From a virus (lineage: Duplodnaviria > Caudoviricetes), in IMG/VR virus record IMGVR_UViG_3300005611_000002, positions 96,001 through 160,000 of that record: a stretch of DNA of 64,000 bases, one strand, 5' to 3'. The notes under the pieces were generated by a model that did not search any database, had not been told where the DNA came from, and saw only the letters and a list, made by a program, of their open reading frames with translations. Below, piece by piece: positions 12,465-31,148 of the stretch (position 1 is the first letter of the stretch; each line of letters starts with the position of its first letter). Both the position numbers and the translations under genes were made by a program.

Positions 12465-12476
12465 TTTAGGCTCTTA

Positions 12477-12806
12477 TTATATCCAATACTTTTCGTTGGT
12501 ATAGTCTTGTGGAATTGGGTTCATAATCTCAATCTCGTCAGACTTAGCGCGGATAAACTTGATGGTATCCCAGATCAATTCCATTGCCAGAACTTCGTCT
12601 CGTTGCTCTTGGGTCCAGTTGGTTTCACCAATGCGCAGTAATTCTGCTGACCGTGCCAACATATTTCTTTGTTTGTATTCTGGTGCAATAGCAAGAATAC
12701 GACGAGATGCTTCTTGTTTGACCATATCTGCGGCGAGTGGAGGTGGGGGAGGAAAGTCACTGTCTGGGACTTCTATGATCTGACCGTTTTTTAATACTTT
12801 TGCCAT
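12477..12806 (-). CDS. putative tail fibre assembly chaperone
   Basis: 109 aa with poly-Pro linker, VKQEASRRI...QRN, PQDY...YW; directly downstream of a fibre gene. Confidence 0.55.
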   Translation of the reverse strand: MAKVLKNGQIIEVPDSDFPPPPPLAADMVKQEASRRILAIAPEYKQRNMLARSAELLRIGETNWTQEQRDEVLAMELIWDTIKFIRAKSDEIEIMNPIPQDYTNEKYWI

Positions 12807-13921
12807 TAGAGGGCCTCCTTGTAGCCGTAGAGGTAAATGGTTCCGGAGGTATAAGTCGCACTACCGCTGTAGAATGTTGCCCTCAACGAATTTACAAGGC
12901 TTGTTGTCGTAAGTTGACCGCGAGAGGTTATTCTATAAAAATCGGAAAAAGCGGAACCAGTTCCCGAACCCATGGTCGATACGTTTGTGGCGGAAATTAT
13001 TAAATCGACCAAAACGGATATGTCCGCATTCAAACCAACTGAAAAGCCTATGCCGCTGTCAGCATCACTATTTGAGACGGCGGTTGATGATCCGCCAATA
13101 TCTGTAGCTGAGCAGTAATTATTATGTGTTGACGTAGATATAAAGGAAGAGCCGCCGTCAGTTGAAAAACGCAATATAGGATAACCGTTATTAGTGCCAA
13201 CATCGTTGAAGACTAACCGAAAATTTTTATAGCCAGAAGGCAAATCAAAATCCACAGCATTGACTGAGGCTGTGATTGTCTCCACTGCCAACAACTCAAG
13301 ACCGCCTCCACCGCCACCGCTACTAGAATCAATCCAATCATAATCAACTCCAGTCCACGACAGCACTTGATTATTTGCTGCGGTAGATGTATTCAAATGA
13401 TTATCTACGTCATTGTCTGTATATGAAGATGTAGTTCCTTGAATACCCTGAGTACCTTGAAGACCTTGGATACCCTGTTCGCCTGTAGTACCTTGAATGC
13501 CTTGAGTACCTTGAATGCCCTGTTCGCCTGTAGTACCTTGAATGCCAAGATCACCCTGAGTACCTTGTGTGCCTTGAACACCTTGAATGCCAAGATCACC
13601 TTGAATGCCTTGTGCACCCTGAAGACCTTGTACACCTTGTACACCTTGTGTGCCTTGAACACCCTGAATACCCTGAAGACCTTGTGTACCTTGAACACCT
13701 TGTACACCTTGCGTACCCTGAAGACCTTGTGTACCTTGAACACCTTGTACACCTTGCGTACCCTGAACACCTTGAATGCCTTGAATGCCTTGAATGCCTT
13801 GAATGCCTTGAAGACCTTGTGTGCCTTGTGCACCCTGAACACCTTGAATGCCTCTTTCTGTGCTCTTATTCCCAAAAGAAATCACAGATGGTTCTTGAAC
13901 GGTTACTTTAATATTCGCCAT
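12806..13921 (-). CDS. collagen-like fibre protein with C-terminal globular domain
   Basis: Roughly 45 G-X-Q/G-X-X triplets, VLSW..DW linker, poly-Gly, C-terminal domain ending SGTIYLYG. Confidence 0.85.
   Translation of the reverse strand: MANIKVTVQEPSVISFGNKSTERGIQGVQGAQGTQGLQGIQGIQGIQGIQGVQGTQGVQGVQGTQGLQGTQGVQGVQGTQGLQGIQGVQGTQGVQGVQGLQGAQGIQGDLGIQGVQGTQGTQGDLGIQGTTGEQGIQGTQGIQGTTGEQGIQGLQGTQGIQGTTSSYTDNDVDNHLNTSTAANNQVLSWTGVDYDWIDSSSGGGGGGLELLAVETITASVNAVDFDLPSGYKNFRLVFNDVGTNNGYPILRFSTDGGSSFISTSTHNNYCSATDIGGSSTAVSNSDADSGIGFSVGLNADISVLVDLIISATNVSTMGSGTGSAFSDFYRITSRGQLTTTSLVNSLRATFYSGSATYTSGTIYLYGYKEAL
13430..13852 (-). repeat. 9-bp period repeat encoding G-X-Q collagen triplets
   Basis: Tandem ccttgaatg/ccttgtgta/ccctgaaga-type units. 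Confidence 0.9.
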
Positions 13922-14274
13922 TATGTCGGCACCCTAGTAATAGTTTCTACTATAAACAATAATCCCTCTAATATCTTTTCAACACTGTTATTGTCATCTA
14001 TCATGATAACGTCGTATTGATACTTTCCTGGATTCAAGTCTTTAGTTTGTTCTCCAGTAATCGTTATTGATATATCATTAGCTGGATCGCCAGCAATTAT
14101 AGAAACGTTTGCATCAAAGAGTTTAGATGTAGAATAAAGTTTTTTTACACTACAATAAAAACTAAACTCATCAGTTATGTTGTAGGTACTATTAGCTGAC
14201 TCCAACTGTAATGTCGTATAAAAGTCTGTACCTTGGTCGATATATAAATTTACTCTTGCGGCCATGTTTCCCAC
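13921..14274 (-). CDS. virion structural/adaptor protein
   Basis: NLYIDQGTDF...L.PGKYQYDV...KILEG motif typical of T4-like fibre-associated small proteins; likely start MAARV. Confidence 0.65.
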   Translation of the reverse strand: MGNMAARVNLYIDQGTDFYTTLQLESANSTYNITDEFSFYCSVKKLYSTSKLFDANVSIIAGDPANDISITITGEQTKDLNPGKYQYDVIMIDDNNSVEKILEGLLFIVETITRVPT

Positions 14275-14290
14275 ACTTCTTGTTTTATTC

Positions 14291-14298
14291 TATTTATA
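14291..14298 (-). promoter_or_regulatory. T4 late promoter TATAAATA
   Basis: Exact consensus upstream of 13921-14274. Confidence 0.8.
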
Positions 14299-14316
14299 TC
14301 TTTTTTACTTTTTTGG

Positions 14317-14345
14317 TTGACATACTTCGTAGAGTGGCGTATAAT
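14317..14345 (+). promoter_or_regulatory. consensus sigma70-type promoter, antisense to the modification operon
   Basis: TTGACA (14317-22), 17 nt spacer, TATAAT (14340-45). Confidence 0.7.
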
Positions 14346-14394
14346 AGAATTAAGGTTCTGAAAGATAACCGTATTAATTCAGTATAGTGTCCAA

Positions 14395-15582
14395 TTATGA
14401 ATAGAATAGATAAGGAATGATATAGTTCTTATCGTTGTTCATATACATCAATCGTTGATGAACAGTGGGTTCACAGCATGTCCACCAATCTTCATAACTG
14501 TCATTTGGATTGAATGCTATATCGTTGGCAACAAGTTTGTATCCAGCATCCTTTAAGATCTTTCTTGACTCTTCTTTAATTTCGTTTCCTAATCGATAAG
14601 TATCATGTTCAAAGTGTATCACTGAAAACTTATAATGATCAAATGGAATTTGCTTTAATATATCAAGTGAAGCTTCATCGCAGTCTATTTGTAAATAATC
14701 TATTTGGTGAGGAGCACAAGATTCGTCTAAAAGTGAACGATAATCAATTTCTGTTGCGTCAGCGCATATAATTGAATTTCTTCTTTTTTCCGAAAATAAA
14801 TAACACGATTCTCGATTTGAGTCAATCGATATTCCTTTCCAATTAAATTGAGTCTCAAGAAGAGCAGTATTATTCGTGTCAAATGGATGACCACTTCCAA
14901 TTTCAAGATAAAATCCTTCTGTCTTCCCATTTAGAAAAGACAGTATAAACATGTCCTGCATGTGTTTCGAATAGTTTTTCTCGACAATTTCAATACCAGG
15001 AAATGGATAGCGATAACGATTTAAATCGCGATCTTTCTTATACATAATTGTGTCTGGGTAACCGAAGCGAGAAAGAAACTCTTTTGGTGCACTTTCAAGA
15101 GGAAATGAACGAGATAATTCTAAAATAATCTCTTTTGACTTATCTATAAGACCTATGTTCCAGCTGCTTTCTGCTATTAAAAGTTGAAAGTGAAGATATT
15201 CTTTTGTTGTATTGTCAACTAATGAACATCCTTGAGTAGCATAAAGAAGACACTCTCTCCATTTCTTTTGCTTAAGATAAAAATTCGCTATCTTTTCATA
15301 TGCAGTCGACTTATTTCCGTCAATTGTAATCGCATATTGCAAAAGTCCTTCGACAGTATAAAACCGTGATCCCTGTTGTGAAAAACAATCTGCACTGTTA
15401 ATAAGAGAAACGTATTTCATGTTTTCGTCGTCTGTCAATTCTGCGGCTCTAATGTAAAAAGACACTGCAGACGCATATTGCTTCATTTCGTGATATGTTT
15501 CCGCTATATTAAAATTTCTAGATGCGTCTGTGGGTTTCATTGCGTAGTTATAAATTGCGTGATTTAAAGAATCCAACGTCAT
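14395..15582 (-). CDS. TPR + FkbM-family methyltransferase
   Basis: Helical TPR-like N-half; QD.F, YLEIGSG...NNT..LE..W.G.SID, IDYLQID.D, FEHD, EDWW. Confidence 0.8.
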   Translation of the reverse strand: MTLDSLNHAIYNYAMKPTDASRNFNIAETYHEMKQYASAVSFYIRAAELTDDENMKYVSLINSADCFSQQGSRFYTVEGLLQYAITIDGNKSTAYEKIANFYLKQKKWRECLLYATQGCSLVDNTTKEYLHFQLLIAESSWNIGLIDKSKEIILELSRSFPLESAPKEFLSRFGYPDTIMYKKDRDLNRYRYPFPGIEIVEKNYSKHMQDMFILSFLNGKTEGFYLEIGSGHPFDTNNTALLETQFNWKGISIDSNRESCYLFSEKRRNSIICADATEIDYRSLLDESCAPHQIDYLQIDCDEASLDILKQIPFDHYKFSVIHFEHDTYRLGNEIKEESRKILKDAGYKLVANDIAFNPNDSYEDWWTCCEPTVHQRLMYMNNDKNYIIPYLFYS

Positions 15583-16586
15583 CAGTTTTTCTCCAATAAT
15601 TTTTCAAAACATGTAAATGGAATTGAGAGTAAGTAAGCAGCATTATCTTGAAATCCAAATGATATAAGAACTCTATCTTTTTGTATTGAAAGACCAGTTG
15701 CAAACTCAATTTCACCTTTCAAGAATGTAAATACATCTGTAGAACGAACTATATTCCAATTCTTATCCCACATTATGATTCTATGCATATACTTGCCATT
15801 CTTTCTTCCATGAAAATCGCCGTAAAGGTCTACCTCATGAGTAATAGCTATTTTGTAATCCTTTTTCCAAGTGACTACTTGTGAGCCACCTCTTAGATCT
15901 CGCGAAAATTTATATCTCTTGTTTTCATCCAATAATGTTGTTGTTGTTGTTTTTTCATCCATATCAAAGTAAACTACTTCTGTTGGATTACACCATTTTA
16001 CCCAATGAAATGGCTCGTCAAGTACTGGCATCCAATTCTTTTCGCAATAACTTGTATTTGGAGCTGGTGCTGGTATTGAATCTCTTGAGAGCTCATGGTA
16101 TTCGCCATCAGCAAAAATTATTCTCGAAAGATCCATTCTTCCAGTTCCTTTATCGTCAATATGATCGCGTCGAACGCCACACAAATACAATTTATCATCC
16201 CATTTAAATAGTCTAGCATCTTCTAAACCAATAAAATTCCACTTTGGTTGAGTATCGTACTTCATTGATACTGGGTATACGCCGACAGTATTTAATTCAG
16301 AATCTAAATGCGCTATGAAATTATTTGTTCTAAGTTTTAGATCATCTTCAGGATGTATGTATTGAAGAGGACCCCATTGGTGAGGAAATCCATTTCCTTC
16401 ACTATGATATAATGTATAATTGACATGTCTTATATTGACAAGGATTGAATCACCATCAATGAAAACAGATGGATTCATCAGCCCCGTTCCACCGCTATTT
16501 TTAGAATCTACAACCAAAGGAACAATAGAACCTCCGTTTTCAATAGCATAGTGGCACAATCCATATAATGATATCTCACGATTCAT
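15582..16586 (-). CDS. five-bladed propeller glycoside hydrolase/phosphorylase-like protein (GH130-like)
   Basis: NPS, GLEDARLF, CEKNWMP, LRGG, IEFATGL, FG.QD motifs. Confidence 0.65.
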   Translation of the reverse strand: MNREISLYGLCHYAIENGGSIVPLVVDSKNSGGTGLMNPSVFIDGDSILVNIRHVNYTLYHSEGNGFPHQWGPLQYIHPEDDLKLRTNNFIAHLDSELNTVGVYPVSMKYDTQPKWNFIGLEDARLFKWDDKLYLCGVRRDHIDDKGTGRMDLSRIIFADGEYHELSRDSIPAPAPNTSYCEKNWMPVLDEPFHWVKWCNPTEVVYFDMDEKTTTTTLLDENKRYKFSRDLRGGSQVVTWKKDYKIAITHEVDLYGDFHGRKNGKYMHRIIMWDKNWNIVRSTDVFTFLKGEIEFATGLSIQKDRVLISFGFQDNAAYLLSIPFTCFEKLLEKN

Positions 16587-17370
16587 AATCTTCTCCTAAT
16601 ACATTCTTTACCTTATTCATATCTGCACATGTATACGCCTGATATTGACTTTTCAATTTCTCTGGAAATGGAATTGTTTTTATTACAGCATCGTGTTTTT
16701 TCGCTACTTCCTCTGCAATTGAAAGAAAACTTCTAGGTTGGCCCGTCCCAATGTTAAATATTCCAGATATATTCTTGTTCATAAATTTTCTGTGATAGTA
16801 ATAAACAAGCTCTATTGGAACGAAATCACGGCAAAAATGCTCGGATCCTTCAAATACTCTTATTCTTCCATTGTTGATTGCTTGCTTTTGAAATGTGTAA
16901 AAAGGACTTGCTTGTTCGTCTTTACAAGACTCGCCTTCACCATAAACATTGAAATATCTAAATCCCTGCTTTATAATACTCACTTCTCTTTTTTGTATAT
17001 ATCTTTCTAGTAAATCTTTTGATCTAGCATAAAAGCTCATCGGAAACGTTTCAGATTCTTCTGAAAAATTGTCTCTGTAAAGAGATGCAGACGAACTCCA
17101 TTGAAAGTTAACATCGTGTTTTACACATAATTCAAATAGTTCTATCGGCCATGAAACGTTAAGATCCATGATCTTTTCTATGTTGTCTTCTGTTGTAGAG
17201 CTCACAGCTCCTGCGTGTACTACCCAGTTGTATTTTTCTATATTCAATAAATTTGGTCTGATATAACCATCTTTTATATCATAACGGTTTACTTTATGAC
17301 CTTCTTTTTCCAAACAGTTAGCAATTTGACTTCCTATAAAACCTTTAGTTCCTGTAACGAGTATTTTCAA
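16576..17370 (-). CDS. hldD: ADP-L-glycero-D-manno-heptose 6-epimerase-like SDR
   Basis: TGTKGFIGS, H.GA.SSTT, SSAS.Y, YARSK, RYFNVYG, RDFV, YQAYTCAD. Confidence 0.85.
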   Translation of the reverse strand: MKILVTGTKGFIGSQIANCLEKEGHKVNRYDIKDGYIRPNLLNIEKYNWVVHAGAVSSTTEDNIEKIMDLNVSWPIELFELCVKHDVNFQWSSSASLYRDNFSEESETFPMSFYARSKDLLERYIQKREVSIIKQGFRYFNVYGEGESCKDEQASPFYTFQKQAINNGRIRVFEGSEHFCRDFVPIELVYYYHRKFMNKNISGIFNIGTGQPRSFLSIAEEVAKKHDAVIKTIPFPEKLKSQYQAYTCADMNKVKNVLGEDYES

Positions 17371-17756
17371 TTTTGACTATCTCCGGGTCTAATACGATAA
17401 TTATCTTTTATTGAGTCAGCTGTAGACACTTCTATAATGGTTCCTTCCTCTACGCATTCAAGTTGATGAGGAACGAGAGGATGATTTCGCCAAACATCAC
17501 CCTTTTTTAGTATTACTTCATGTTCTTTAGAATTTATCGTTTCGATATATCGCAGCTTAAAGAGACCTTCTAGAACATACCATGTTTCGTCCTTTTCAAC
17601 ATGAAAATGCATTGAAAACTTCTTATCTTTCTTAAAGTGCAGAAACTTGCCGCAATATTTGTCGTTTGTAGTCCAAATAAATTCGTGGCCCCACCCCTTT
17701 TCAATATGACCATCATTTCTCATTTTAATATCTCCTTTAAATCCGGTGCATAGCAA
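17367..17756 (-). CDS. cupin-domain sugar isomerase-like protein
   Basis: KGWGHE, YCGK, SMHFH..KDETW, PHQL, EVST..DNYR..PGDSQ. Confidence 0.8.
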   Translation of the reverse strand: MLCTGFKGDIKMRNDGHIEKGWGHEFIWTTNDKYCGKFLHFKKDKKFSMHFHVEKDETWYVLEGLFKLRYIETINSKEHEVILKKGDVWRNHPLVPHQLECVEEGTIIEVSTADSIKDNYRIRPGDSQN

Positions 17757-18562
17757 CCTCTGTGTTGTATTGTAATCCTCGCAGCCATATTAGCAAACGC
17801 AATAGCTTTATCTATGTCTTGTGTTATATGATACATGAACGAAACTGCCGCAAGAAATGTATCTCCAGCACCGATTACATCTATAAAAACTATAGGCATG
17901 ACTGGAAACCAACGTTTGGTTTCTGGTTGAGGATAAAAAACCACACCGTCCTGCGCACAAGTAACAATAGTGTTAGGACAATCACTTGTCCTTGCGTTGT
18001 ATTCAGACTCATTGATCTTTATAAATGCGCCATCAAAACGAGCAAGGTCTTTTTTCTTCGTATCTATGAATACTGTCGCATTTCTTTCTTTTGCGAGGAA
18101 TATGAGAGTTTCAATTTCTTCGTATGAGAGCGTACCTTTGTCATAATCAGAGATGATCACTAAATTGGCGCCCAATTCCGTGATAGCACTTTTAGCTTTT
18201 TCAAATACTTTTTCTTTGTGTTTTGCGCTTAAAGATTCATCTACTCTAAAAAGCTGCTGCTTAAACTTTCGGTCTACATAACGGTTCTTCTTCTCTGTAA
18301 AGTGAGCAGTGAAGATATGGTTTTCATTTAGATCATCGCATAGCTTAAGTATATTGTCATTGACATTTGCACACATACCATTTTTTATGTGCGTTTGAAC
18401 ATGTTTAAAGACTGGAACTGGAGCTTCTGGACTTATTCTTGTAACGTCACCGTAATGATAATAATCCCAACAGGCGTCACCTGTTACTAATACTTTCAAT
18501 GATTTGAGTTGAGGAGAATTTTGTATCTCGTTCAAAGAAAATAACTGATTTAGCATATTCAC
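17720..18562 (-). CDS. RfaE/HldE kinase domain (PfkB family, heptose-7-phosphate kinase-like)
   Basis: RISPEAPVPV, ISDYDKG, DV.GAGDTF. Confidence 0.88.
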   Translation of the reverse strand: MNMLNQLFSLNEIQNSPQLKSLKVLVTGDACWDYYHYGDVTRISPEAPVPVFKHVQTHIKNGMCANVNDNILKLCDDLNENHIFTAHFTEKKNRYVDRKFKQQLFRVDESLSAKHKEKVFEKAKSAITELGANLVIISDYDKGTLSYEEIETLIFLAKERNATVFIDTKKKDLARFDGAFIKINESEYNARTSDCPNTIVTCAQDGVVFYPQPETKRWFPVMPIVFIDVIGAGDTFLAAVSFMYHITQDIDKAIAFANMAARITIQHRGCYAPDLKEILK

Positions 18563-18887
18563 TTCCTATCACTTTTTCATTTCTATAATCAGACCCGACT
18601 ATCATTACATCGGGATTGTAAACCTTGACTATATTTATTAATTCTTCATCAGAGTCGAATACACAAACTTCATCAACGCCCTTGACGTGGCGCATCATTG
18701 TAGATCTAAATTCTTGATTATTTATTGGCCTATTAATTCCTTTACGCTCACGAATTCTTCTGTCAGAATCAATGGCGACTAGTAGATAGTCGCCAGTATT
18801 AGATGCAAAAGTGAGTAGTTGCATATGTCCAGGGTGGAGCAGATCAAATGTTCCATTAACAAAAATTTTCACCATTCGTTCGTCCAA
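18477..18887 (-). CDS. RfaE/HldE domain II, heptose-1-phosphate adenylyltransferase-like
   Basis: NGTFDLLHPGH, DSD.RI...KG..RPIN, GSDY, SSTQII. Confidence 0.88.
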   Translation of the reverse strand: MDERMVKIFVNGTFDLLHPGHMQLLTFASNTGDYLLVAIDSDRRIRERKGINRPINNQEFRSTMMRHVKGVDEVCVFDSDEELINIVKVYNPDVMIVGSDYRNEKVIGSEYAKSVIFFERDTKFSSTQIIESISNR

Positions 18888-19588
18888 TGATTAACTCCAT
18901 TTTCGTTATAAAATTTTCTCTTTTCTATTTCGTGATCGAATGGCGGAACACCACTAAACATCACAGTGTTATAAGGAGGTTCTTCTTTTATTGTAACACA
19001 AAAATTAAATTTTTTGAGCTCATCTCGTAACATACTTATCGTGAAAGATTCATTAATGTGTCCAGTGATTGCAATCATAATGCCATGTAAATATGTTTGC
19101 GGACCTAAGAAATAAATGCTATTTGCACCGCGAGCTCTTCTATTCAAGTTTAGTTTGAGAGTTTCTGCAAAGATAGGATTCTGTGGTGCACTGCACATAA
19201 AATCATGTGAAAAATCATGATCTAAACATGTAGGAAGTACAAGACGTGTTTTATCATTAACTATATCTTCGAGAGAACGATTACATAATCTATCTATATC
19301 TGTATATAAACCGCCTTCATTATAGATTTTAATAAGTCTCCAAACATCTATCTTTTCAACGATATGTTTATGTTCAAGATTTTTCCAATCATTTTTAGAA
19401 AGATTTAATTTTAAATAAGCATTTACATCTTCATCGTCGCTTATTTCGATAAACCAGTCTGGCATTAGATGCATCATTTTATGAACAGTCATATCTAGAA
19501 ATTTGCTATTCATCGAAAGTATATTCTTGTTTTTCCAAGTTAGATGTATTTTCTTGGGTATCACTGTTCGCCTATCAATGTATAGCAA
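18869..19588 (-). CDS. GT32-like DXD glycosyltransferase
   Basis: IPKKIHLTW, D.WR...Y.EGGLYTDID, GP. Confidence 0.8.
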   Translation of the reverse strand: MLYIDRRTVIPKKIHLTWKNKNILSMNSKFLDMTVHKMMHLMPDWFIEISDDEDVNAYLKLNLSKNDWKNLEHKHIVEKIDVWRLIKIYNEGGLYTDIDRLCNRSLEDIVNDKTRLVLPTCLDHDFSHDFMCSAPQNPIFAETLKLNLNRRARGANSIYFLGPQTYLHGIMIAITGHINESFTISMLRDELKKFNFCVTIKEEPPYNTVMFSGVPPFDHEIEKRKFYNENGVNHWTNEW

Positions 19589-20088
19589 AGTAGTAGTTTT
19601 TCTTCAAAGCTGTGAAAAACCCACGGACGATAAAAGACTGCATCATTTTGTCTTACATTCATTACTGTTTCAATTATCCAATCATCTAGATTATGATAGT
19701 CGAATTCGTAGGCGTCAAGAGCAGTTGTTGCTCCAGATACATGGCTATACGTCGTGAAAGTAGTGTCTTCTAGTGCTATAGCAAGACGCCACTCGTTTAG
19801 ATCGTCAAACTCTTCAAAATGTATGAGATTATGATATGGTCTGCGAAAAGTTCCAGATTTTTCTTCATCTAGCTTTACAAAATCCCCGATCATACCACCA
19901 AATACCATGTCCATTTCAGGAAATATCAAATTTAAATCCGCATTTTGATATCCATATGCCATTGGATAATAGTGAATTAAATCTTTAACCGCGTTCTTGC
20001 AGCTTTCAGCTTCGCCTTCGGGAAGAAAGTTTCTGGCGTGTATATAGTTGAGAAAACTTCTGTTAACTTGAAAATTTTTGTTGCTCAT
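19561..20088 (-). CDS. DUF6445-like 2OG-Fe(II) oxygenase-fold protein (divergent)
   Basis: NF.P, SGTFR, IHFE, N.AVFYRPW.FHS; resembles ORF 21060-21665. Confidence 0.55.
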   Translation of the reverse strand: MSNKNFQVNRSFLNYIHARNFLPEGEAESCKNAVKDLIHYYPMAYGYQNADLNLIFPEMDMVFGGMIGDFVKLDEEKSGTFRRPYHNLIHFEEFDDLNEWRLAIALEDTTFTTYSHVSGATTALDAYEFDYHNLDDWIIETVMNVRQNDAVFYRPWVFHSFEEKLLLCYTLIGEQ

Positions 20089-22980: not shown

Positions 22981-23525
22981 TATTTTATCACCATTAGCTT
23001 CATATGTATTTCTGTAATTGCGTTATTCATAGCTCTTGCCATCCAATCTATCTGTGAAGGATCATCAATATTAGATATGATCTGTTTAAACGTGTCATCT
23101 AGTTCATAATTATAACTGACAATTTCAAAATCAACATTAAGCTGATGAGCAAGACCGCTCCAGCTGCTTGTGATATATGATTGAGTCTCGCACCATTTCT
23201 TTGAAAGAGGCTTCATATTCTCAACGGTGATTGGCCGAACATGAGTAAGATCACCTAGAAAAAAGTCATGTCTGGGATGCGGAACATGAACATCGATAAT
23301 TGCTTCATGTTGACACACACGGTAAAGATCTTTTAGAAAATCAAAGAAACCATCACCGATGTGTTCAAAAACGTGATGCGCGATAACTTCGTCGACAGTA
23401 TTGTCCTCAAAAGGAAAAATGTCTTTACCGAGCTGCATCACATAATCTGGACTACAATTAGGATCACTATCAATATTGACAAATCCTGGAAACCTCTTGA
23501 TTCCACTACCTATATTGAGTTTCAT
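22980..23525 (-). CDS. class I SAM-dependent methyltransferase
   Basis: LNIGSG, NID, PFEDNTVD, HVFEH, D.THVR. Confidence 0.85.
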   Translation of the reverse strand: MKLNIGSGIKRFPGFVNIDSDPNCSPDYVMQLGKDIFPFEDNTVDEVIAHHVFEHIGDGFFDFLKDLYRVCQHEAIIDVHVPHPRHDFFLGDLTHVRPITVENMKPLSKKWCETQSYITSSWSGLAHQLNVDFEIVSYNYELDDTFKQIISNIDDPSQIDWMARAMNNAITEIHMKLMVIK

Positions 23526-23534
23526 TTCTGTCTT

Positions 23535-24239
23535 TCATGTAAATGTCGAAAATATTTCTCTTGCGTACTGATGCCAGTCGCGATCTCTACCAGTAATCGT
23601 AGTTTCATCAGGCGCGTCAAACGCATAGAAACCAGTTTGAACTAATGGAAAGATATCAGCCCGTATCAACATATCTGCAGGAGCTGATAGTCCAAATCTG
23701 ATCACGTGTGAAACAAGTTGACGTGCAATCGCTGGATCTATCGCGTATGCATGAGCACGACAAATAAACTTGTAATTCTTTGTTGCAGCAGAATGTGGAG
23801 GAAAGCTCGGCCAACCAGTTTCTAATTGACTATAGTTTCCAAGATAGTTAATCTGATTCCAACCGTCATGCCAAGCATACTTATTGACCATGATTGCGTC
23901 GTGTTCTAAAATAACAATGGGCATATCAATTTTGACGCAACGTGCCCAGAGTGAATAATGACTAAGTATGGTAGCGACTTCTGTGATTGTCAACTTATCG
24001 TTCATCTGTTTAAGAAAACGATAATGATCCTGATCTTTTGCGTGATCTGGATAGATTATAGATCCAGATGTGCCATCAAACGCGTCCCATACATGAAATG
24101 GTTGTTCTACTTTTACACAGCTCTGCTGACATCTATGGGATAACTTTTCAGAAGTTGTGTGATTCTTAAGAGTGATGATATATGCTTCTACATCATCAAA
24201 ATGCATTTTATAATCGAGGGTCTCTACTGTTGGATTCAT
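23535..24239 (-). CDS. GT25-family glycosyltransferase
   Basis: AYIITL, A.DG, SHY.LW..C, VILEHDA, AHAYAI.P, D. Confidence 0.78.
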   Translation of the reverse strand: MNPTVETLDYKMHFDDVEAYIITLKNHTTSEKLSHRCQQSCVKVEQPFHVWDAFDGTSGSIIYPDHAKDQDHYRFLKQMNDKLTITEVATILSHYSLWARCVKIDMPIVILEHDAIMVNKYAWHDGWNQINYLGNYSQLETGWPSFPPHSAATKNYKFICRAHAYAIDPAIARQLVSHVIRFGLSAPADMLIRADIFPLVQTGFYAFDAPDETTITGRDRDWHQYAREIFSTFT

Positions 24240-24606
24240 ATGGTACCTTCACATAATATGTATCATTTTCTTTACAGAAATTATCAATTTCAGAGTAGAT
24301 TGAGTAGTCGACAATTTCTTGCAATTCAACTACCTTCAAGAATTGTTTATGCTCAACAGTATTTATCTCTATGGATACAAGTACACCACACTGATCTGGT
24401 CTCATCCATTCTGGTAGAACATTCTGTGTCCACGCGCATTGATAATCATGACAAGATTGCGGTCTATCTTTGTAGATTGAACATGCTCGATTAACAAGAA
24501 AAACACACGGCTTATGATATCCAAAAACATTACCATAACTATTTCCAACAATATGCCCGTCGCAACAAGCTGTGCATTCGCCGCACGAACGAAAATTCAT
24601 CGCCAA
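24208..24606 (-). CDS. CxxCxxCC (YkgJ-like) metal/Fe-S cluster protein
   Basis: CGECTACC, C.FL, CSIY.DRP..C..Y.C.W. Confidence 0.8.
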   Translation of the reverse strand: MAMNFRSCGECTACCDGHIVGNSYGNVFGYHKPCVFLVNRACSIYKDRPQSCHDYQCAWTQNVLPEWMRPDQCGVLVSIEINTVEHKQFLKVVELQEIVDYSIYSEIDNFCKENDTYYVKVPYESNSRDPRL

Positions 24607-25364
24607 ACCTCTAAGTTTGCAAACTGATTTATAATGTCAGGTGGAATGATATAAGACTTTTGTTTGTATTCTATTTTGGAATGCGTAGAATGCAAACCAT
24701 CCATTTTTATGTTTTGGTCATACTCATCATATGAGACGGATACATTATTAAAGTCATGCTCATAATATGGTTCTTCTATAAAATTGTAAATTGCTTTCAT
24801 AGTGCCTTCGGGATTTTTTGTTAAGACATCGTATTCGATTAGCATTAACATATCTGTATGAGGTCCTGTGAACGCAGATTTTAAAGAGTCATATGGAAGC
24901 TTTACAATTCCGCCGTCAGTCATTAACGCGGCAGCTCTTGTGTATACATTAAGATCGACTTCTTTTGGATACACTGTTGAAATTTTGAATGGATTTTGTT
25001 GATGCATTCTTTCGAACGAGTCAAGTATTCTTGTTATGTCACGAACACAGCATATTACTTTTGTGTATGGATAGATCGACCTAAGTTCTGGAAGTAAGTT
25101 TGTCCAGAGTCGATTTGTATTAAAAACTACAGGCTTTTTCGTATCGTAGTAAAAAGCATCTACAGTTGACTTAACTATATTTTTAAGACGAGTCTCGTCA
25201 AACTCGTTTGGAGGGCATGAGTTACCAGTTTCTATCTGAGAGCGAAAGTGACTAAGAAGATTGTCAGATATGCTTGTATGAAATTTGGGATTCTGCCCTA
25301 ATACAGCAGAGAGTAGAGTTGAGCCAGAACGCGGAAGTCCAGATATAAAGTAGTATTTTTTCAA
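24597..25364 (-). CDS. PAPS-dependent sulfotransferase
   Basis: SGLPRSGSTLL 5'-PSB loop, VRD..RILDSF 3'-PB motif, YD.L..NP. Confidence 0.88.
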   Translation of the reverse strand: MKKYYFISGLPRSGSTLLSAVLGQNPKFHTSISDNLLSHFRSQIETGNSCPPNEFDETRLKNIVKSTVDAFYYDTKKPVVFNTNRLWTNLLPELRSIYPYTKVICCVRDITRILDSFERMHQQNPFKISTVYPKEVDLNVYTRAAALMTDGGIVKLPYDSLKSAFTGPHTDMLMLIEYDVLTKNPEGTMKAIYNFIEEPYYEHDFNNVSVSYDEYDQNIKMDGLHSTHSKIEYKQKSYIIPPDIINQFANLEVWR

Positions 25365-25389
25365 GTATCACCTCTTGCATAATAATTTG

Positions 25390-25397
25390 TATTTATA
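25390..25397 (-). promoter_or_regulatory. T4 late promoter TATAAATA heading the modification operon
   Basis: Exact consensus ~25 nt upstream of the sulfotransferase start (SD GAGGTG). Confidence 0.78.
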
Positions 25398-25403
25398 TAT
25401 AAT

Positions 25404-26597
25404 TTACCAGCAGTCTTCACGGATTGCAGCTGAATTAGAGCTCCCTAGATTTATGCTTCGCCAATTATTTCCACCAGAAATTGTTTGAACTGGACTAGAT
25501 TGCGAGGATGCTGAAATGCCAAGTCCAAGTGCACCATCATTATTACTGCCCCACAACCACAAGCTGCCGTCAGTCTTGATCGCAGCTGAGTGACCATTCC
25601 CAAGACTTACACTTCTCCAGTTAGTTCCGCCGGAAACTGTTTGGACTGGACTGGACTGATTCACTGTTGGTCCTAAACCATTGCCAAGTCGAGTATCACC
25701 ATTATTGCCCCACAACCACAAGCTGCCATCGGTCTTAATCGCGGCTGAATGCGCGCATTTTGATAAACTTAGACTTCGCCAGTTAGTTCCACCAGAAACT
25801 GTTTGAACTGGGCTAGAATGATCTGTCAGCGAATTGTCACCAAGTCGACCATAACCATTACATCCCCACAACCAAAGACTGCCGTCAGTCTTGATCGCGG
25901 CTGAGTGATAAGCACCTAAACTTACACTTCGCCAATTAGTTCCACCGGAAACTGTTTGTACTGGGCTAGACTGACTCGTTGTTGAATTATCGCCAAGTCG
26001 ACCTAGTAAATTACTGCCCCACAACCACAAGCTACCATCGGTTTTGATTGCAGCTGAGTGATAAGCACCTAAACTTACACTTCGCCAATTAGTTCCACCG
26101 GAAACTGTTTGTACTGGACTTGATCGACTTGTTGTTGAGTTATCGCCGATAGCACCACAAAAAGATCGACCCCACAACCAAAGACTGCCGTCAGTCTTGA
26201 TCGCGGCTGAGTGAGTGCCACCTAAACTTACACTTCGCCAGTTATTTCCACCAGAAACTGTTTGAACTGGACTTGATCGATCCGTTGTTGAGTTGTTGCC
26301 TAGTTGACCTCTATTTCCACCACCCCATAGCCACAAGCTACCATCGGTCTTGATTGCAGCTGAGTGAAGCGTACCTAAACTTACACTTCGCCAGTTGTTT
26401 CCGCCGGAAACAGTTTGAACTGGGCTGGATTGATTTGCTGTTGAGTTATTGCCAAGTTTGCCTCTATTTCCATCGCCCCACAACCACAAACCACCTTCGA
26501 GAAAACAATCCTTACGAACAAAAACGTCGTCAAAATCAGCAGATGACCATCCAACAGTAGAGTCAGTGATTTTAAAGTTCGTCGGATTCTTACTCAT
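25404..26597 (-). CDS. RCC1-repeat beta-propeller protein (7 repeats)
   Basis: 7x ~52 aa WLWG-xxxx-GxLG...SSPVQTVSGG.NW.SVSLG-xx-HSAAIKTDGSL. Confidence 0.92.
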   Translation of the reverse strand: MSKNPTNFKITDSTVGWSSADFDDVFVRKDCFLEGGLWLWGDGNRGKLGNNSTANQSSPVQTVSGGNNWRSVSLGTLHSAAIKTDGSLWLWGGGNRGQLGNNSTTDRSSPVQTVSGGNNWRSVSLGGTHSAAIKTDGSLWLWGRSFCGAIGDNSTTSRSSPVQTVSGGTNWRSVSLGAYHSAAIKTDGSLWLWGSNLLGRLGDNSTTSQSSPVQTVSGGTNWRSVSLGAYHSAAIKTDGSLWLWGCNGYGRLGDNSLTDHSSPVQTVSGGTNWRSLSLSKCAHSAAIKTDGSLWLWGNNGDTRLGNGLGPTVNQSSPVQTVSGGTNWRSVSLGNGHSAAIKTDGSLWLWGSNNDGALGLGISASSQSSPVQTISGGNNWRSINLGSSNSAAIREDCW

Positions 26598-27796
26598 TAG
26601 TATTCTCCTTCGTCGCGTATTGCGGCGCTGGCTTCATACACACTTACACTTCGCCAGTTGTTTCCGCCAGAAACTGTTTGAACCGGGCTTGATTGACTTG
26701 TTGTTGAGTTGTCGCCAATTTGGCCAGAAAAATTTCTTCCCCATAACCAGAGACTACCATCAGTTTTGATTGCAGCTGAATGCTGATTACCTAAACACAC
26801 ACTTCGCCAGTTAGTTCCACCAGAGACCGTTTGAACCGGAGAACTTTTATTGGTTGTAGTATTATCACCTAATCTACCAAATGAACCATTACCCCACAAC
26901 CACAAGCTACCGTCAGTCTTGATTGCAGCTGAATGTTGATTGCCTAAACTTACACTTCGCCAGTTATTTCCACCAGAAACTGTTTGAACTGGACTCGATT
27001 GACTTGTTACTGAATCTGTACCAAGTAGACCAATATTACCAAGTCCCCACAACCAAAGACTGCCGTCAGTCTTGATCGCGGCTGAGTGATAAGCACCTAT
27101 ACTTACACTTCTCCAATTAGTTCCACCGGAAACTGTTTGAACTGGACTAGATTGATTTGCTGTTGAGTTGTTACCTAGTTGGCCTAAACCTCCACTGCCC
27201 CACAACCAAAGTGTACCATCAATCTTGATTGCAGCTGAATTACATCTCATAAGACTTACACTTTTCCAATTAGTCCCACCTGAAACTGTCTGGACTGGAC
27301 TTGATTGACTTGCCGTTGAATTGTTACCTAAACGGCCGAAATTTCCTCCACCCCACAACCACAAGCTACCGTCAGTCTTGATTGCAGCTGAGTGATCAAA
27401 TCCAAAACTTGCACTTTGCCAGTTAGTTCCACCAGAAACTGTTTGTACTGGACTGGATTGGACATTTGTTGAGTTGTTACCTAGTTCTCCATCTGCGTTA
27501 GATCCCCATAGCCACAAGCTACCATCAGTCTTGATTGCTCCAATATGTTCTCTTCCTGAAAATACAACTTTCCAGTTAGTTCCACTAGAAACCGTTTGTA
27601 CTGGACTTGACTTATTCGTTGTTGAATTATCGCCAAGTCGACCTATGAAATTTCCACCCCACAACCAAAGACCTGGCGCTTTCATCCAGGGCACCAAGTG
27701 CGGATAGTTTTCGATCATATATTCCTTGGTGACTAGATGACATCCAATGTCTATTCCATCATCGTCGCTGAATCTTGTGCAGATTCTATCAGGCAT
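26597..27796 (-). CDS. RCC1-repeat beta-propeller protein (7 repeats)
   Basis: Same repeat, 7 copies. Confidence 0.92.
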   Translation of the reverse strand: MPDRICTRFSDDDGIDIGCHLVTKEYMIENYPHLVPWMKAPGLWLWGGNFIGRLGDNSTTNKSSPVQTVSSGTNWKVVFSGREHIGAIKTDGSLWLWGSNADGELGNNSTNVQSSPVQTVSGGTNWQSASFGFDHSAAIKTDGSLWLWGGGNFGRLGNNSTASQSSPVQTVSGGTNWKSVSLMRCNSAAIKIDGTLWLWGSGGLGQLGNNSTANQSSPVQTVSGGTNWRSVSIGAYHSAAIKTDGSLWLWGLGNIGLLGTDSVTSQSSPVQTVSGGNNWRSVSLGNQHSAAIKTDGSLWLWGNGSFGRLGDNTTTNKSSPVQTVSGGTNWRSVCLGNQHSAAIKTDGSLWLWGRNFSGQIGDNSTTSQSSPVQTVSGGNNWRSVSVYEASAAIRDEGEY

Positions 27797-28463
27797 TCTC
27801 TTCCTCGTTCTTATCTTGTATTATAATCGCATCGAGCTCTTCGAGTGTAGTACATGCATCTATCTCTGCGGATTTATCTGCTTCCCAATCAAAACAAGAT
27901 TGAATATATTCTGCGCCTTTTGATACTATGAATCCTAGTTCTGTCTTTGATAGAGTTAACCATATGTTATCAGGAAACTTCCATTTAATCGTTTCATTAT
28001 CTTGCATCATAGAATATTTCTGAAGAAATATATTTCGATTGCCACGACTTGTGTCACAAAAAACATCTGTTTCCTGGATATTTAACACAACACCAAGAGA
28101 TTCTTTTTGCCATCTAACACTAGCAGCTAAACTTTTCAATTCGCCTTTCACTTGTGATATTGGTTTATCTACTCTAATCCAAGAAGCAATTGCTTGAACT
28201 TCGGGATTTTCATCATCGTAGATCCAAAATGGACCTTCGTGCCGATGTATCTTTTCGTTAGTTAAATTTTCATAAGTAATATTGCAACGACGAACTTTTA
28301 CTCCTGGAAGAATTTCATACGGAACGCGTTGTTCGTCTTCAGCTGTTACAGTAACTTCTTCTTGTAACTCGTCGAAGATTATGTCTGATATATATCTAGG
28401 TCTCCAGTCAATAGGACCTAGTATGACAAAATTTCCATTATTGTGATCTGTAATTACATACAT
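27789..28463 (-). CDS. DUF4376-like fibre assembly/chaperone protein
   Basis: C-terminal K..A..RW.KE..G, WK...W..L, Q.CFDWE...I....LEEL; embedded among fibre genes. Confidence 0.65.
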   Translation of the reverse strand: MYVITDHNNGNFVILGPIDWRPRYISDIIFDELQEEVTVTAEDEQRVPYEILPGVKVRRCNITYENLTNEKIHRHEGPFWIYDDENPEVQAIASWIRVDKPISQVKGELKSLAASVRWQKESLGVVLNIQETDVFCDTSRGNRNIFLQKYSMMQDNETIKWKFPDNIWLTLSKTELGFIVSKGAEYIQSCFDWEADKSAEIDACTTLEELDAIIIQDKNEEENA

Positions 28464-28476
28464 GATTGAAATATCC

Positions 28477-29475
28477 CTATAGTTCTATTATCTTTGTTGC
28501 AGCTGAGTGACATTTACCTAGACTTGCGCTTCTCCAGTTAGTTCCGCCGGAAACAGTTTGTACTGGGCTTGATTGTCTTGTTGTCGAGTTATTGCCTAGT
28601 ATACCTGTGGAACCAAATCCCCACAACCAGAGGCTACCATCAGTCTTGATTGCAGCTGAGTGATAATTGCCTAAACTTACACTTCGCCAGTTAGTTCCAC
28701 CGGAAACTGTTTGTACTGGACTTGATTGACTTGCATTTGAGTTGTCACCTAGTTGGCCGGATGTGCCGGTGCCCCACATCCACAAGCTACCATCAGTTTT
28801 GATTGCAGCTGAGTGTCCGCCTAAGCTTACGCTTCGCCAGTTAGTTCCGCCGGAAACTGTTTGAACTGGGCTTGACTGACTTGCTGCTGAGTTGTTACCA
28901 ATTTGACCAGTAGTATTACATCCCCACAACCACAAGCTACCATCAGTCTTGATTGCAGCTGAAAGATTAATTCCTAGACTTACGCTTCTCCAGTTAGTTC
29001 CGCCGGAAACAGTTTGAACTGGACTTGACTGAAAAGTTGCTGTTGAGTTGTTACCAATTTGACCTATATTTCCAACACCCCACAACCAGAGACTGCCATC
29101 AGTCTTGATCGCGGCTGAGTGATTATTGCCTAAACTTACACTTCGCCAGTTAGTTCCGCCGGAAACAGTTTGAACTGGACTAGATCGAGCTGTTGTAGAG
29201 TTGTCGCCAAGTCTTAGTCCAGCGCCCCACGACCAGAGACTGCCATCGGTCTTGATTGCGGCTGAGTGATAATTGCCTAAACTTGCACTTCTCCAGTTAG
29301 TTCCGCCGGAAACAGTTTGAACTGGGCTTGATTGATTCGTTACTGAATTTGTACCGAGTCGGCCGTAGGCGCCACTACCCCACAACCACAGCTGTTTACC
29401 GGTAAATAGCTCGATCATTTCTTCGTCTGTGACGAATATGTCTTTTATACAACCACCCTGTGACAGTAATGGCAT
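28477..29475 (-). CDS. RCC1-repeat beta-propeller protein (6 repeats)
   Basis: Same repeat, 6 copies. Confidence 0.92.
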   Translation of the reverse strand: MPLLSQGGCIKDIFVTDEEMIELFTGKQLWLWGSGAYGRLGTNSVTNQSSPVQTVSGGTNWRSASLGNYHSAAIKTDGSLWSWGAGLRLGDNSTTARSSPVQTVSGGTNWRSVSLGNNHSAAIKTDGSLWLWGVGNIGQIGNNSTATFQSSPVQTVSGGTNWRSVSLGINLSAAIKTDGSLWLWGCNTTGQIGNNSAASQSSPVQTVSGGTNWRSVSLGGHSAAIKTDGSLWMWGTGTSGQLGDNSNASQSSPVQTVSGGTNWRSVSLGNYHSAAIKTDGSLWLWGFGSTGILGNNSTTRQSSPVQTVSGGTNWRSASLGKCHSAATKIIEL

Positions 29476-31148
29476 TAATCTTTCACCCTCTTACTTAGAT
29501 CCTTCACTGCTTGAATCAATATCGCAATAAGCGGAGTATAACTAACATAACTTTTATCATCATTCTTTGTTATTAATTCTGGCAAGATCTCTTCAAGCTG
29601 CTGAGCAACAACACCATAGCTTTTAATACCAGTATCTTTCCAATCAAACGAAACTACGTCTATTTCATTGAGTATATTAATTGGATTTTCTATCTCACTA
29701 AAATTTGTTTTTTCCGATATATCCGAAAGCGAGTTAAACTCAGTTGCGGATAGCCTTCCCGTAGAAGGTCTGAAAAATAGTTTAGTTGTACTCGCTTTTG
29801 GTGTTTGTTCACTACCAGCCGCTCCAACAAATACTGGGAAATGATCCGACGCAGTTGAAGTATCGTCTGTAGCTGTAATGCCACCAGAGCCGCCGTCTGC
29901 TCCTTGAATGCCTTGAAAACCTAAATCTCCTTGGATACCCTGAGTACCTTGGATGCCTTGAATACCCTGAGTACCTTGAGATCCTAAAGTTCCATCTATG
30001 CCCTGAATACCCTGGATACCTTGAATACCCTGAATACCCTGAGTACCTTGAGATCCTAAAGTTCCATCTATGCCCTGAATACCCTGGATACCTTGAATAC
30101 CCTGAGTACCTTGAGATCCTAAAGTTCCATCTATGCCCTGAATACCCTGGATACCTTGTGCACCAAGTGTTCCATCGTCGCCTTTGATACCCTGAATACC
30201 CTGAATACCCTGAATACCTTGTGCACCAAGTGTTCCATCGATACCCTGAATACCCAGATCGCCTTGGATACCTTGGATGCCTTGGATACCTTGAGATCCT
30301 AAAGTTCCATCTATGCCCTGAATACCCAGATCGCCCTGAATACCCTGAATACCCTGAATACCTTGTGCACCAAGTGTTCCATCGATACCTTGAATACCCA
30401 GATCGCCTTGGATACCTTGAGCACCTTGGATACCCTGAATACCCAGATCGCCCTGAATACCCAGATCACCTTGGATACCTTGAATACCCTGAATACCTTG
30501 TGCACCAAGTGTTCCATCGATACCCTGAATACCTAGATCGCCCTGGATACCTTGGATACCTTGAGTGCCAGCACCGGTTGCGCCCTGAATACCTAAATCA
30601 CCCTGGATACCTTGTATACCTTGAGTACCTTGAGCTCCTTGTACTCCAGAGAAACCGCGAGGTCCTTGAATGCCCTCTTCGCCTTGTACGCCTTGTGTGC
30701 CTTGAATGCCTTGAATGCCTTGAACACCCTGTGGACCCTTTATTTGTCCGGAATTAATCCAAGTAGTTCCGTCGTATGCCCACGCATCGCCAGTTGCCTC
30801 ATCGATTACTGCATCACCTGCAGTTGCTCCAGGAAATGCAGTATTTAGTGTACTTTGCGGATCGTTAGGCGGGTTTACATTAACATCCGCAACAGATCCT
30901 ATCAAATTAATGCTCGGAGAATAAGCACCTTGAAGTCCCTGAAGTCCCTGAATCCCTTGAGTACCTTGTATACCTTGTGGTCCAGGTGATACAATATTCC
31001 AGCTACTACCATCAGATACTCTAATGGTTGTATCATCAGCATATATAATTGCGCCTTCGTACATGGCTGGATCAAGCTCTATAGGTAGAGCTTGTTTAAA
31101 CGCCGGTCCAATTACTTTAGTTTTGCCTCTTAAGGATTTAATTGACAT
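29475..31148 (-). CDS. collagen-like tail fibre with C-terminal intramolecular chaperone (peptidase S74-like)
   Basis: About 100 G-X-Q/G-X-X triplets; C-terminal SD...K.N, F.WKD, GVVAQ.LE..LPEL, Y..LI..LI.AVK.L. Confidence 0.88.
   Translation of the reverse strand: MSIKSLRGKTKVIGPAFKQALPIELDPAMYEGAIIYADDTTIRVSDGSSWNIVSPGPQGIQGTQGIQGLQGLQGAYSPSINLIGSVADVNVNPPNDPQSTLNTAFPGATAGDAVIDEATGDAWAYDGTTWINSGQIKGPQGVQGIQGIQGTQGVQGEEGIQGPRGFSGVQGAQGTQGIQGIQGDLGIQGATGAGTQGIQGIQGDLGIQGIDGTLGAQGIQGIQGIQGDLGIQGDLGIQGIQGAQGIQGDLGIQGIDGTLGAQGIQGIQGIQGDLGIQGIDGTLGSQGIQGIQGIQGDLGIQGIDGTLGAQGIQGIQGIQGIKGDDGTLGAQGIQGIQGIDGTLGSQGTQGIQGIQGIQGIDGTLGSQGTQGIQGIQGIQGIQGIDGTLGSQGTQGIQGIQGTQGIQGDLGFQGIQGADGGSGGITATDDTSTASDHFPVFVGAAGSEQTPKASTTKLFFRPSTGRLSATEFNSLSDISEKTNFSEIENPINILNEIDVVSFDWKDTGIKSYGVVAQQLEEILPELITKNDDKSYVSYTPLIAILIQAVKDLSKRVKD
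29895..30740 (-). repeat. collagen-like repeat with higher-order GIQGIDGTLG(A/S)Q and GDL units
   Basis: Near-identical DNA blocks, e.g. ccttgagatcctaaagttccatctatgccctgaatac, 4 copies. Confidence 0.9.

Follow-up and report, generated by a model that had tools for sequence, protein, structure and literature searches.

Several described systems resemble, each in part, the one considered here. In TibC and Aah, which act with TibA and AIDA-I (PDB 4RAP, 4RB4), the gene of a soluble, cytoplasmic GT9-fold enzyme that transfers heptose lies beside that of a folded-repeat substrate, the arrangement proposed below for a phage. FlmG of Caulobacter crescentus binds flagellin through its TPR domain, and both its TPR and GT-B domains are required (PMC7591256). 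O-GlcNAc transferase (OGT) and SPINDLY, of family GT41, also join TPR repeats to a GT-B fold, and the pathway of the lipopolysaccharide (LPS) core (GmhA, HldE, GmhB, HldD, WaaC/WaaF) provides the best family and fold matches for the phage enzymes. Among viruses, the passages of PMC12619734 that cite Freeman et al. 2023 describe mycobacteriophage virions as glycosylated by phage transferases that are encoded beside structural genes and act on the phage's own virion proteins. Here, we analysed a 64,000-nucleotide window from an uncultured T4-like water phage, bases 96001–160000 of the complete 194,645-bp IMG/VR record IMGVR_UViG_3300005611_000002 (direct terminal repeats, 39% G+C), in which an operon of 15 enzyme-like genes, including a TPR-fused GT9-like transferase (TPR-GT9), lies among fibre genes. 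In many phages, the core of this cassette (sulfotransferase, methyltransferase, TPR-GT9) is found together with genes of the fibre module, and from the features described below we lean towards the view that the targets of the cassette are fibre-module proteins of the phage itself, modified late in infection and in the cytoplasm.

Profile searches placed T4-type neck and baseplate genes in the window. Neck-protein identity to Sinorhizobium phiM12-like phages is about 51%, cyanophage neck proteins being more distant; a megablast search of the operon against GenBank phages gave no match, and no near-identical phage was found there. From 9.8 to 35 kb of the window, a stretch that holds all the window genes given here with coordinates, every gene lies on the minus strand. 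The enzyme operon consists of 15 open reading frames (ORFs) running from 25364 down to 14395, with 12 of the 14 junctions overlapping when the longest-ORF starts are taken and gaps of 9 and 69 nt at the remaining two. On one side it is flanked by three RCC1 β-propeller genes and a collagen-like fibre gene, and on the other by a second collagen-like fibre gene. An earlier reading of this DNA made without database searches (the sequence-only reading) had described a mostly overlapping 15-gene operon between two G-X-Q fibre genes and three propeller genes, a layout that the gene positions and profile matches bear out. The RCC1 propeller proteins a (397 aa, 25404..26597, directly upstream of the operon), b (399 aa, 26597..27796) and c (332 aa, 28477..29475) score 228, 217 and 189 bits, respectively, against PF25390, the WD40_RLD model, with six RCC1 matches in c. 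The larger collagen-like protein (557 aa, 29475..31148) matches PF01391 at 7.9e-47 and carries a C-terminal Peptidase_S74 chaperone domain (PF13884, 2.4e-11), and the smaller one (371 aa, 12806..13921) matches PF01391 at 1.2e-24.

To follow the cassette in other phages, the TPR-GT9 family was searched for, which gave 729 matches at E < 1e-5, with at least 150 relatives in IMG/VR; 80 loci were fetched, de-duplication at 70% identity left 35 phage lineages, and a gene was taken as a neighbour when located within 10 kb of the TPR-GT9 gene. RCC1 genes were found in this neighbourhood in 31 of the 35 lineages, the small methyltransferase and the sulfotransferase in 28 each, the 175-aa metalloenzyme-like protein in 23, the cysteine-cluster protein in 15, the heptose genes in 14 and GT25 in 12. 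The usual order, mostly on one strand, is fibre and RCC1 genes, followed by the enzymes and then by the genes for a 247-aa protein and the neck. TPR-GT9 is carried by the cultured phages S-SRM01 and BUCT-ZZ01, and the cyanophage S-SRM01 shows this gene order. As a baseline, only 15 of the 50,697 phage records of GenBank had an RCC1 match; of the four distinct GenBank phages that carry TPR-GT9, three are among them, with the two genes adjacent in each. The literature search, in which RCC1 terms mostly matched algal strain numbers (RCC), returned no paper on an RCC1-linked cassette.

The co-occurrence of the operon with G-X-Q fibres, put forward in the sequence-only reading as a check, was examined in the 40 loci flanked on each side by 8 kb or more (full-flank loci), counting as collagen-like any gene with at least eight G-X-Y triplets. 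Such genes were found in only 8 of these 40 loci, and the DUF4376 gene in 26 of them. Collagen-like and RCC1 genes occur together in five loci (L022, L027, L028, L068, L071). One separate lineage, represented by locus L030 (IMG/VR 3300042562_003539; 118-6851 and 9971-13522) and the near-identical L031-L036 and L052, encodes collagen-like proteins of 539 and 1,707 aa and no RCC1 gene; its collagen-like genes are located about 3 kb upstream of a block with TPR-GT9, sulfotransferase and a double GT25, with exonuclease and helicase genes in between.

The linkage to RCC1 also appears in bacteria. In cellular genome assemblies, homologues of the GT9 domain were found mostly in Bdellovibrio relatives and Saccharibacteria, and for 20 of the 38 lineages an RCC1 gene was located within 10 kb of the homologue, the contigs of the remaining lineages being in many cases short. 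A few of these contigs (L082, L102) are clearly phage DNA, unlike the complete chromosome of B. bacteriovorus Bd16 (CP168971; locus L103, 9875-18141). In Bd16, a 336-aa GT9 homologue that lacks TPR repeats and, directly downstream of it, a 188-aa homologue of the small methyltransferase directly precede two RCC1 proteins of 1,091 and 1,073 aa, with seven and five RCC1-like-domain stretches, respectively; no collagen-like gene was found at this Bdellovibrio locus. Both RCC1 proteins carry SRRAFL twin-arginine (Tat) signals. Tat substrates fold in the cytoplasm ahead of export, so these signals fit a modification by soluble cytoplasmic enzymes.

These data bear on which protein would be the acceptor. 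The sequence-only reading had put forward the threonines of the collagen-like triplets as possible acceptors, noting that the triplets nearly lack proline and lysine; the composition is as described, with threonine at the X position in 13 of 47 triplets of the smaller fibre and 15 of 102 of the larger one, and with 3 prolines and 1 lysine in total. Owing to the same scarcity, collagen-style hydroxylation is unlikely, and prolyl or lysyl hydroxylation with subsequent galactosylation by GT25 was rejected. An emphasis on the collagen threonines is not supported either, the conserved partner being RCC1. Judged from gene neighbourhoods, RCC1a is the best-supported candidate acceptor, with the propellers ahead of the collagen threonines, although the collagen-like fibres may serve as additional acceptors. 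In phage GAP32, mass spectrometry of virions detected an RCC1-like protein (PMC5259590). A complex prediction for TPR-GT9 and RCC1a returned a score of 0.00, which is to be read as no answer, neither for nor against binding.

Regarding the time of expression, a T4-type late promoter motif, TATAAATA, was found at 25390..25397 on the minus strand, heading the enzyme operon, as the sequence-only reading had claimed, and 26 nt before the sulfotransferase start. It sits in the 39-nt gap between the stop codon of RCC1a and the TTG start of the sulfotransferase, which is preceded by a GAGGTGA ribosome-binding site. The genome contains 54 copies of the motif, and 30 of these lie in non-coding DNA, which makes up 6% of the total, usually 17-40 nt ahead of a start codon; given this enrichment, the motif acts like a genuine promoter element. 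It is also found at the head of the neighbouring structural operons, at 33920, at 14291 (14291..14298, minus strand, for the operon that follows) and at 11292. No convincing terminator was found between the RCC1 genes and the enzyme operon. In addition, perfect sigma-70 consensus promoters (TTGACA-N16/17-TATAAT, each after a T-rich stretch), of which there are only 14 in the genome, were detected on the plus strand at 14317..14345, with 12 of 12 hexamer positions matched and pointing antisense into the enzyme operon, and at 11324..11351, antisense into late genes. These two lie back to back with the minus-strand late promoters at 14291 and 11292, and the one at 14317 would be expected to oppose early expression of the operon. 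Late expression is thus, as far as promoter motifs can tell, well supported.

All 15 operon proteins are predicted to lack membrane segments and signal peptides, a solubility that they share with the enzymes of the LPS core. No multi-spanning protein able to flip or ligate a glycan is encoded in the complete genome; therefore, the phage cannot export a glycan by itself. The preference of the sequence-only reading for virion modification over early work on host LPS keeps its footing in the late motif, the solubility, the TPR fusions and the linkage to the fibre module; what changes is the acceptor, with the emphasis moving to RCC1.

TPR-GT9 (444 aa, 21646..22980) was modelled with AlphaFold2 (AF2) using 41 homologues (pLDDT 92.9), giving an N-terminal TPR superhelix (residues 1-170) followed by a C-terminal GT-B domain of GT9 fold. 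Residues 185-444 aligned with the GT9-family structures 3tov (Z 17.0), WaaF (16.4), WaaC (15.7) and TibC (15.7), and the best non-GT9 class of GT-B proteins, the UDP-GlcNAc 2-epimerases, reached Z ≤12.6. The motifs GIGDE and TSCTSxxHAAAxGK, which we take, by eye, to be the GT9 N- and C-terminal motifs, are invariant among the 41 homologues. The Pfam GT9 model PF01075 gave no match above cut-off, Pfam returning a weak TPR_14 match alone, and a profile of the 41 homologues searched against PDB sequences recovered TPR matches and no GT9 chain. The assignment to glycosyltransferase family 9 is therefore a probable one, based on the modelled fold and on motifs read by eye; to this extent, the TPR-fused GT9-like transferase announced by the sequence-only reading was recovered, with Z scores of 15.6-17.0 to GT9 structures. 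A GT41 assignment was also considered, as OGT and SPINDLY headed the whole-chain Foldseek matches because of the shared TPR and GT-B architecture, and was dropped since domain-wise alignment confines the OGT match to the TPR part (Z 12.9) and places the catalytic half nearer GT9.

Compared with the systems mentioned above, the catalytic domain aligns with TibC at Z 15.6-15.7 over about 241 residues, WaaF and 3tov being slightly closer to the phage enzyme, and TibC differs in lacking a TPR domain. The four-cysteine iron site of BAHT enzymes is absent from the phage enzyme, in which a single cysteine (C376) is invariant among the 41 homologues, and instead of an autotransporter, of which no domain was found, its neighbours are RCC1 propellers and collagen-like fibres. 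TibC and Aah transfer heptose, whereas a heptose donor for the phage enzyme is inferred. FlmG shares with it the N-terminal TPR and C-terminal GT-B organization, the solubility and the action before export, and differs in its size (596 aa) and in adding pseudaminic acid to flagellin, this likeness being drawn from the published description only (PMC7591256). As for the mycobacteriophages, the hosts, the enzyme families and the targets (C-termini of capsid and tail-tube proteins) are different, and neither a supply of sugar nucleotides nor sulfation, methylation or a partner of RCC1 type figures in the passages cited above.

A second GT9-like protein (301 aa, 20085..20990, with no TPR; phrog_8954, 3.7e-78) matches PF01075 at 8.8e-4, with 19.1 bits for a cut-off of 22 and through the C-terminal motif only. 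Its family keeps GxDSxGQHxARAxxK, but shows GGAGR in place of the catalytic GD of GT9. It can hence be counted as GT9-like only: the C-terminal motif speaks for a GT9 assignment, and the N-terminal motif, with GR for GD, and the sub-cut-off score do not. The two GT9-like proteins are not recent paralogues, as BLASTP revealed no significant similarity between them.

The putative sugar supply is encoded within the same operon by an HldE domain I-like PfkB anomeric sugar kinase (280 aa, 17720..18562; TIGR02198, rfaE_dom_I, 1.8e-45; GAGD conserved), an HldE domain II-like, cytidylyltransferase-like sugar-1-phosphate adenylyltransferase (136 aa, 18477..18887; TIGR02199, rfaE_dom_II, 7.8e-30), an HldD-like epimerase of the short-chain dehydrogenase/reductase (SDR) class (264 aa, 16576..17370; TIGR02197, 4.1e-57; GxxGxxG and YxxxK conserved), and a metal cupin (129 aa, 17367..17756; PF07883, Cupin_2, 27.5 bits; PF01050, 6.5e-4; HxH...E...H conserved). 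These NCBIfam models are the best matches by far, with bit scores against the equivalog cut-offs of 155.5/345 for the kinase, 103.6/181.5 for the adenylyltransferase and 193.7/274.6 for the epimerase. GmhA (SIS fold, PF13580) and GmhB (HAD fold, TIGR01656) were not found in the window or in the complete genome, in searches that detected the controls in 11 of 14 and 14 of 14 genomes, respectively; the sequence-only reading had already placed both genes outside the window. Its proposal of an ADP-heptose supply is retained for three of the five pathway steps, as best matches, and is weakened by the sub-cut-off scores and by the absence of GmhA and GmhB. E. coli makes ADP-heptose. The phage set differs from the LPS-core pathway in having separate kinase and transferase genes, a metal cupin gene between kinase and epimerase, a TPR domain on the transferase and a fibre-gene setting, in addition to the sub-equivalog scores and the missing GmhA and GmhB.

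The cupin, kinase, transferase and epimerase genes travel as a block in related loci, and by analogy with the conversion of fructose-6-phosphate to mannose-6-phosphate, the metal cupin may replace GmhA as sedoheptulose-7-phosphate isomerase; the 7-phosphatase step, with no candidate in the phage, would fall to the host. A further gene at 11382..12140 encodes a nucleotidyltransferase fused to a phosphomannose isomerase (PMI)-type cupin (252 aa; PF01050, 1.8e-19; PF01467, 1.7e-14), with NCBIfam matches to TIGR02199 (1.2e-20, first half of the transferase profile only) and TIGR01479 (8e-19); this second gene of nucleotidyltransferase and cupin type lies directly upstream of the genes for the 247-aa protein and the neck. 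In the relatives L004, L044 and L045, matches to the fusion protein fall inside the heptose block, and in L004, where no separate cupin gene was detected in the block, the match suggests that nucleotidyltransferase and cupin are fused.

In the mechanism that we favour, the late promoter at 25390, together with read-through from upstream late promoters, would transcribe the 15 translationally coupled genes alongside the fibre genes. The four-gene block would make an ADP-heptose-type donor, the cupin isomerising the sugar phosphate, the PfkB kinase phosphorylating it at C1, the adenylyltransferase activating it and the HldD-like SDR epimerising it, while the host would supply the GmhB step, and the GmhA step too unless the cupin replaces GmhA. 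The TPR arm of TPR-GT9 would hold a folded fibre protein for the transfer of a first sugar onto serine or threonine; elongation of the glycan would fall to GT25, GT32, the GH130/GT108-like enzyme and the second GT9-like protein, and its tailoring to the cysteine-cluster protein, the sulfotransferase, both methyltransferases and both Fe(II)-type oxygenases. Once decorated, the proteins would be built into the tail, and their coat could there influence host binding, solubility or protease resistance. A wider version, in which aquatic phages and Bdellovibrio-like predators coat RCC1 adhesins with a sulfated, methylated heptose glycan, the donor of which would, in the phage studied here, be made by way of the cupin in place of GmhA, and in which this coat, besides the protein surface, helps to decide the hosts of the phage, is offered tentatively and seems to us rather improbable. 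The usual account of phage host range looks to the amino acids exposed on the tail-fibre tips. If many aquatic phages do coat their fibre-tip propellers by means of phage-encoded enzymes, a layer is overlooked in sequence-based host-range prediction, in fibre engineering and in structural studies of such fibres, the 'LPS' and 'cell-wall' genes of large cyanophages need to be read again, and protein heptosylation and the sulfation of protein glycans reach from the adhesins of a few pathogens to viruses.

Several points weigh against the modification of fibre-module proteins. The cassette is known from genes alone, in an uncultured phage and in cultured relatives, and the same is true of the RCC1 proteins, which are here candidate virion components; adjacency shows a functional link and not the identity of the acceptor. 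All three heptose enzymes fall below the NCBIfam cut-offs, the donor pathway of the complete genome has neither GmhA nor GmhB, and the heptose genes accompany TPR-GT9 in only 14 of the 35 phage lineages, so that the sugar transferred by TPR-GT9 need not be heptose. Moreover, HldE, HldD, GT9 and GT25 are classic families of the LPS core, and papers on cyanophages read such genes as modifiers of the host surface (PMC12801897). These last two points speak for remodelling of the host envelope, in which heptose and other sugars, sulfate or methyl groups would be added late in infection to the LPS core or to another glycoconjugate, the fibre genes being mere neighbours; this could keep progeny off cell debris or block superinfection. 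It would also agree with the catalytic domain, matched by WaaC and WaaF (Z 15.7 and 16.4) as well as by TibC (15.7), and with a heptose-core host, which would provide GmhA and GmhB. We nevertheless regard it as unlikely. It accounts neither for the linkage to RCC1, seen in Bdellovibrio chromosomes and in 31 of the 35 phage lineages, nor for the TPR repeats that one transferase and one methyltransferase carry, and an early protective function does not agree with the late promoter and with the early one in antisense. Synechococcus is the host of the cultured carriers, and heptose has not, to our knowledge, been reported in its LPS.

A smaller chance, to be taken as quite unlikely, is given to the RCC1 propellers being partners of the pathway and not its acceptors, either as lectin-like, receptor-binding tips that recognise the glycan or as scaffolds for the enzymes, the true acceptor being then the collagen-like fibres, as in the sequence-only reading, another virion protein or a free glycan. 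Adjacency cannot separate substrate from partner, and threonine-rich collagen-like genes flank the operon and recur with RCC1 in five loci; in Bacillus, the exosporium protein BclA is a collagen-like protein O-glycosylated on threonine. However, a collagen acceptor is hard to reconcile with the presence of collagen-like genes in only 8 of 40 full-flank loci, with the helicase and exonuclease genes that intervene in the lineage that has no RCC1, and with the Bdellovibrio locus, where RCC1 is present and collagen-like genes are not. Hypermodification of DNA, the sugar pathway and the transferases glycosylating modified cytosines of the phage genome, is in our view very improbable. It has a precedent in other phage clusters, some near structural genes, that encode a GT-B enzyme and a nucleotidyltransferase and attach one or two heptoses to 5-hydroxymethylcytosine (bioRxiv 10.1101/2023.12.21.572611), and the operon holds two Fe(II)/2-oxoglutarate (2OG)-type proteins. 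The genome also encodes, past the end of the window (162216-163184 and 166585-167190 of the genome), a C5 cytosine DNA methyltransferase and a short, divergent thymidylate-synthase-family protein (218 aa, beside a dCMP deaminase) that may be a thymidylate synthase or a pyrimidine hydroxymethylase, a pair that hints at modified DNA. But these two genes lie about 41 kb from the operon, whose own methyltransferases are of FkbM and Methyltransf_11 types, one of them TPR-fused, and whose TPR-GT9 catalytic domain is like GT9 and not like the T4 β-glucosyltransferase; the sulfotransferase, the TPR domains and the bacterial RCC1 loci are left with no DNA-based explanation, and we know of no sulfation of DNA. 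Tet_JBP had no match in the genome, a result that is uninformative as the control genomes were silent too.

Regarding the rest of the operon, nearly all the enzyme assignments of the sequence-only reading were sustained by profiles based on hidden Markov models (HMM), by a conserved motif or by fold, the weakest being the second GT9 and the 175-aa 2OG protein. The first gene encodes a sulfotransferase of 3'-phosphoadenosine-5'-phosphosulfate (PAPS) type (255 aa, 24597..25364; PF13469, 1.6e-15, 58 bits) with a conserved GLPRSGST loop. It is followed by the CxxCxxCC cysteine-cluster protein (132 aa, 24208..24606), with eight conserved cysteines and sub-threshold matches to PF03692 in the six members tested, which probably binds a metal or an Fe-S cluster; a likeness to the flagellin methylase FliB was considered and remains a lead only, as it is limited to the motif level (CX2CX2CC vs CX4CX3CC) and FliB is much larger than 132 aa (PMC8598068). 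Then come the GT25 glycosyltransferase (234 aa, 23535..24239; PF01755, 6.5e-15, 56 bits) and the small S-adenosylmethionine (SAM) methyltransferase of Methyltransf_11 type (181 aa, 22980..23525; PF08241, 24.7 bits). Downstream of TPR-GT9, the DUF6445 protein (201 aa, 21060..21665; PF20043, 6.2e-9) is a probable 2OG-Fe(II) oxygenase, with the iron triad H96, D98 and H176 (H96xD98...H176...R190) and a basic R190 for 2OG conserved in an alignment of seven sequences only. The 175-aa protein (19561..20088), a cupin- or 2OG-like metalloenzyme with a conserved HxE...H triad, gave a weak Atlas lead to 2OG-FeII_Oxy_3, its 2OG assignment being based on the motif; in many related phages its HxE...H homologues are located between RCC1 genes and not among the enzymes, a placement that suggests a direct link to the propellers. 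A GT32-type DXD glycosyltransferase (Gly_transf_sug; 239 aa, 18869..19588; PF04488, 2.6e-9, 38 bits) precedes the sugar block. Searches of PDB sequences with the 444-, 301-, 334-, 201- and 175-aa proteins gave nothing useful.

After the epimerase, a 334-aa protein (15582..16586) was modelled at pLDDT 96.0 as a five-bladed propeller of GH130/GT108 fold, similar to mannoside phosphorylases or synthases. All its top Foldseek matches were GH130 or GT108 structures (9erg, 5b0p, 7fir and 6q4w among them; E 1e-9 to 1e-7, TM 0.5-0.6), the best being GH130 phosphorylases/synthases and GT108 mannosyltransferases of Leishmania. The Pfam model PF04041 gave no match, the domain escaping Pfam, so the GH130-like enzyme foreseen in the sequence-only reading is confirmed at the level of fold only. 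The domain family has about 1,900 representatives, mostly viral, often with fusions to GT2, GT17, GT25, FkbM or MT24 methyltransferase, TPR and radical SAM-SPASM domains (proteins P0123-P0231), and these fusions point to a role in building glycans and not in degrading them. The last gene of the operon encodes a TPR protein fused to an FkbM-type methyltransferase (395 aa, 14395..15582; PF05050, 25.7 bits; several TPR matches).

Finally, the fibre genes around the operon include, between RCC1b and RCC1c, a DUF4376 tail-fibre-associated protein (224 aa, 27789..28463; PF14301, 1.5e-10; phrog_10508 'tail fiber protein', 2.1e-13). On the other side, the fibre operon ends with a 109-aa ORF (12477..12806), for which family searches gave no match and no function is assigned by family, and contains, upstream of the smaller collagen-like gene, an LtfC-like fibre assembly protein (117 aa, 13921..14274) that matches phrog_3304 'L-shaped tail fiber protein assembly' at 9.5e-12 and, weakly, PF23926.

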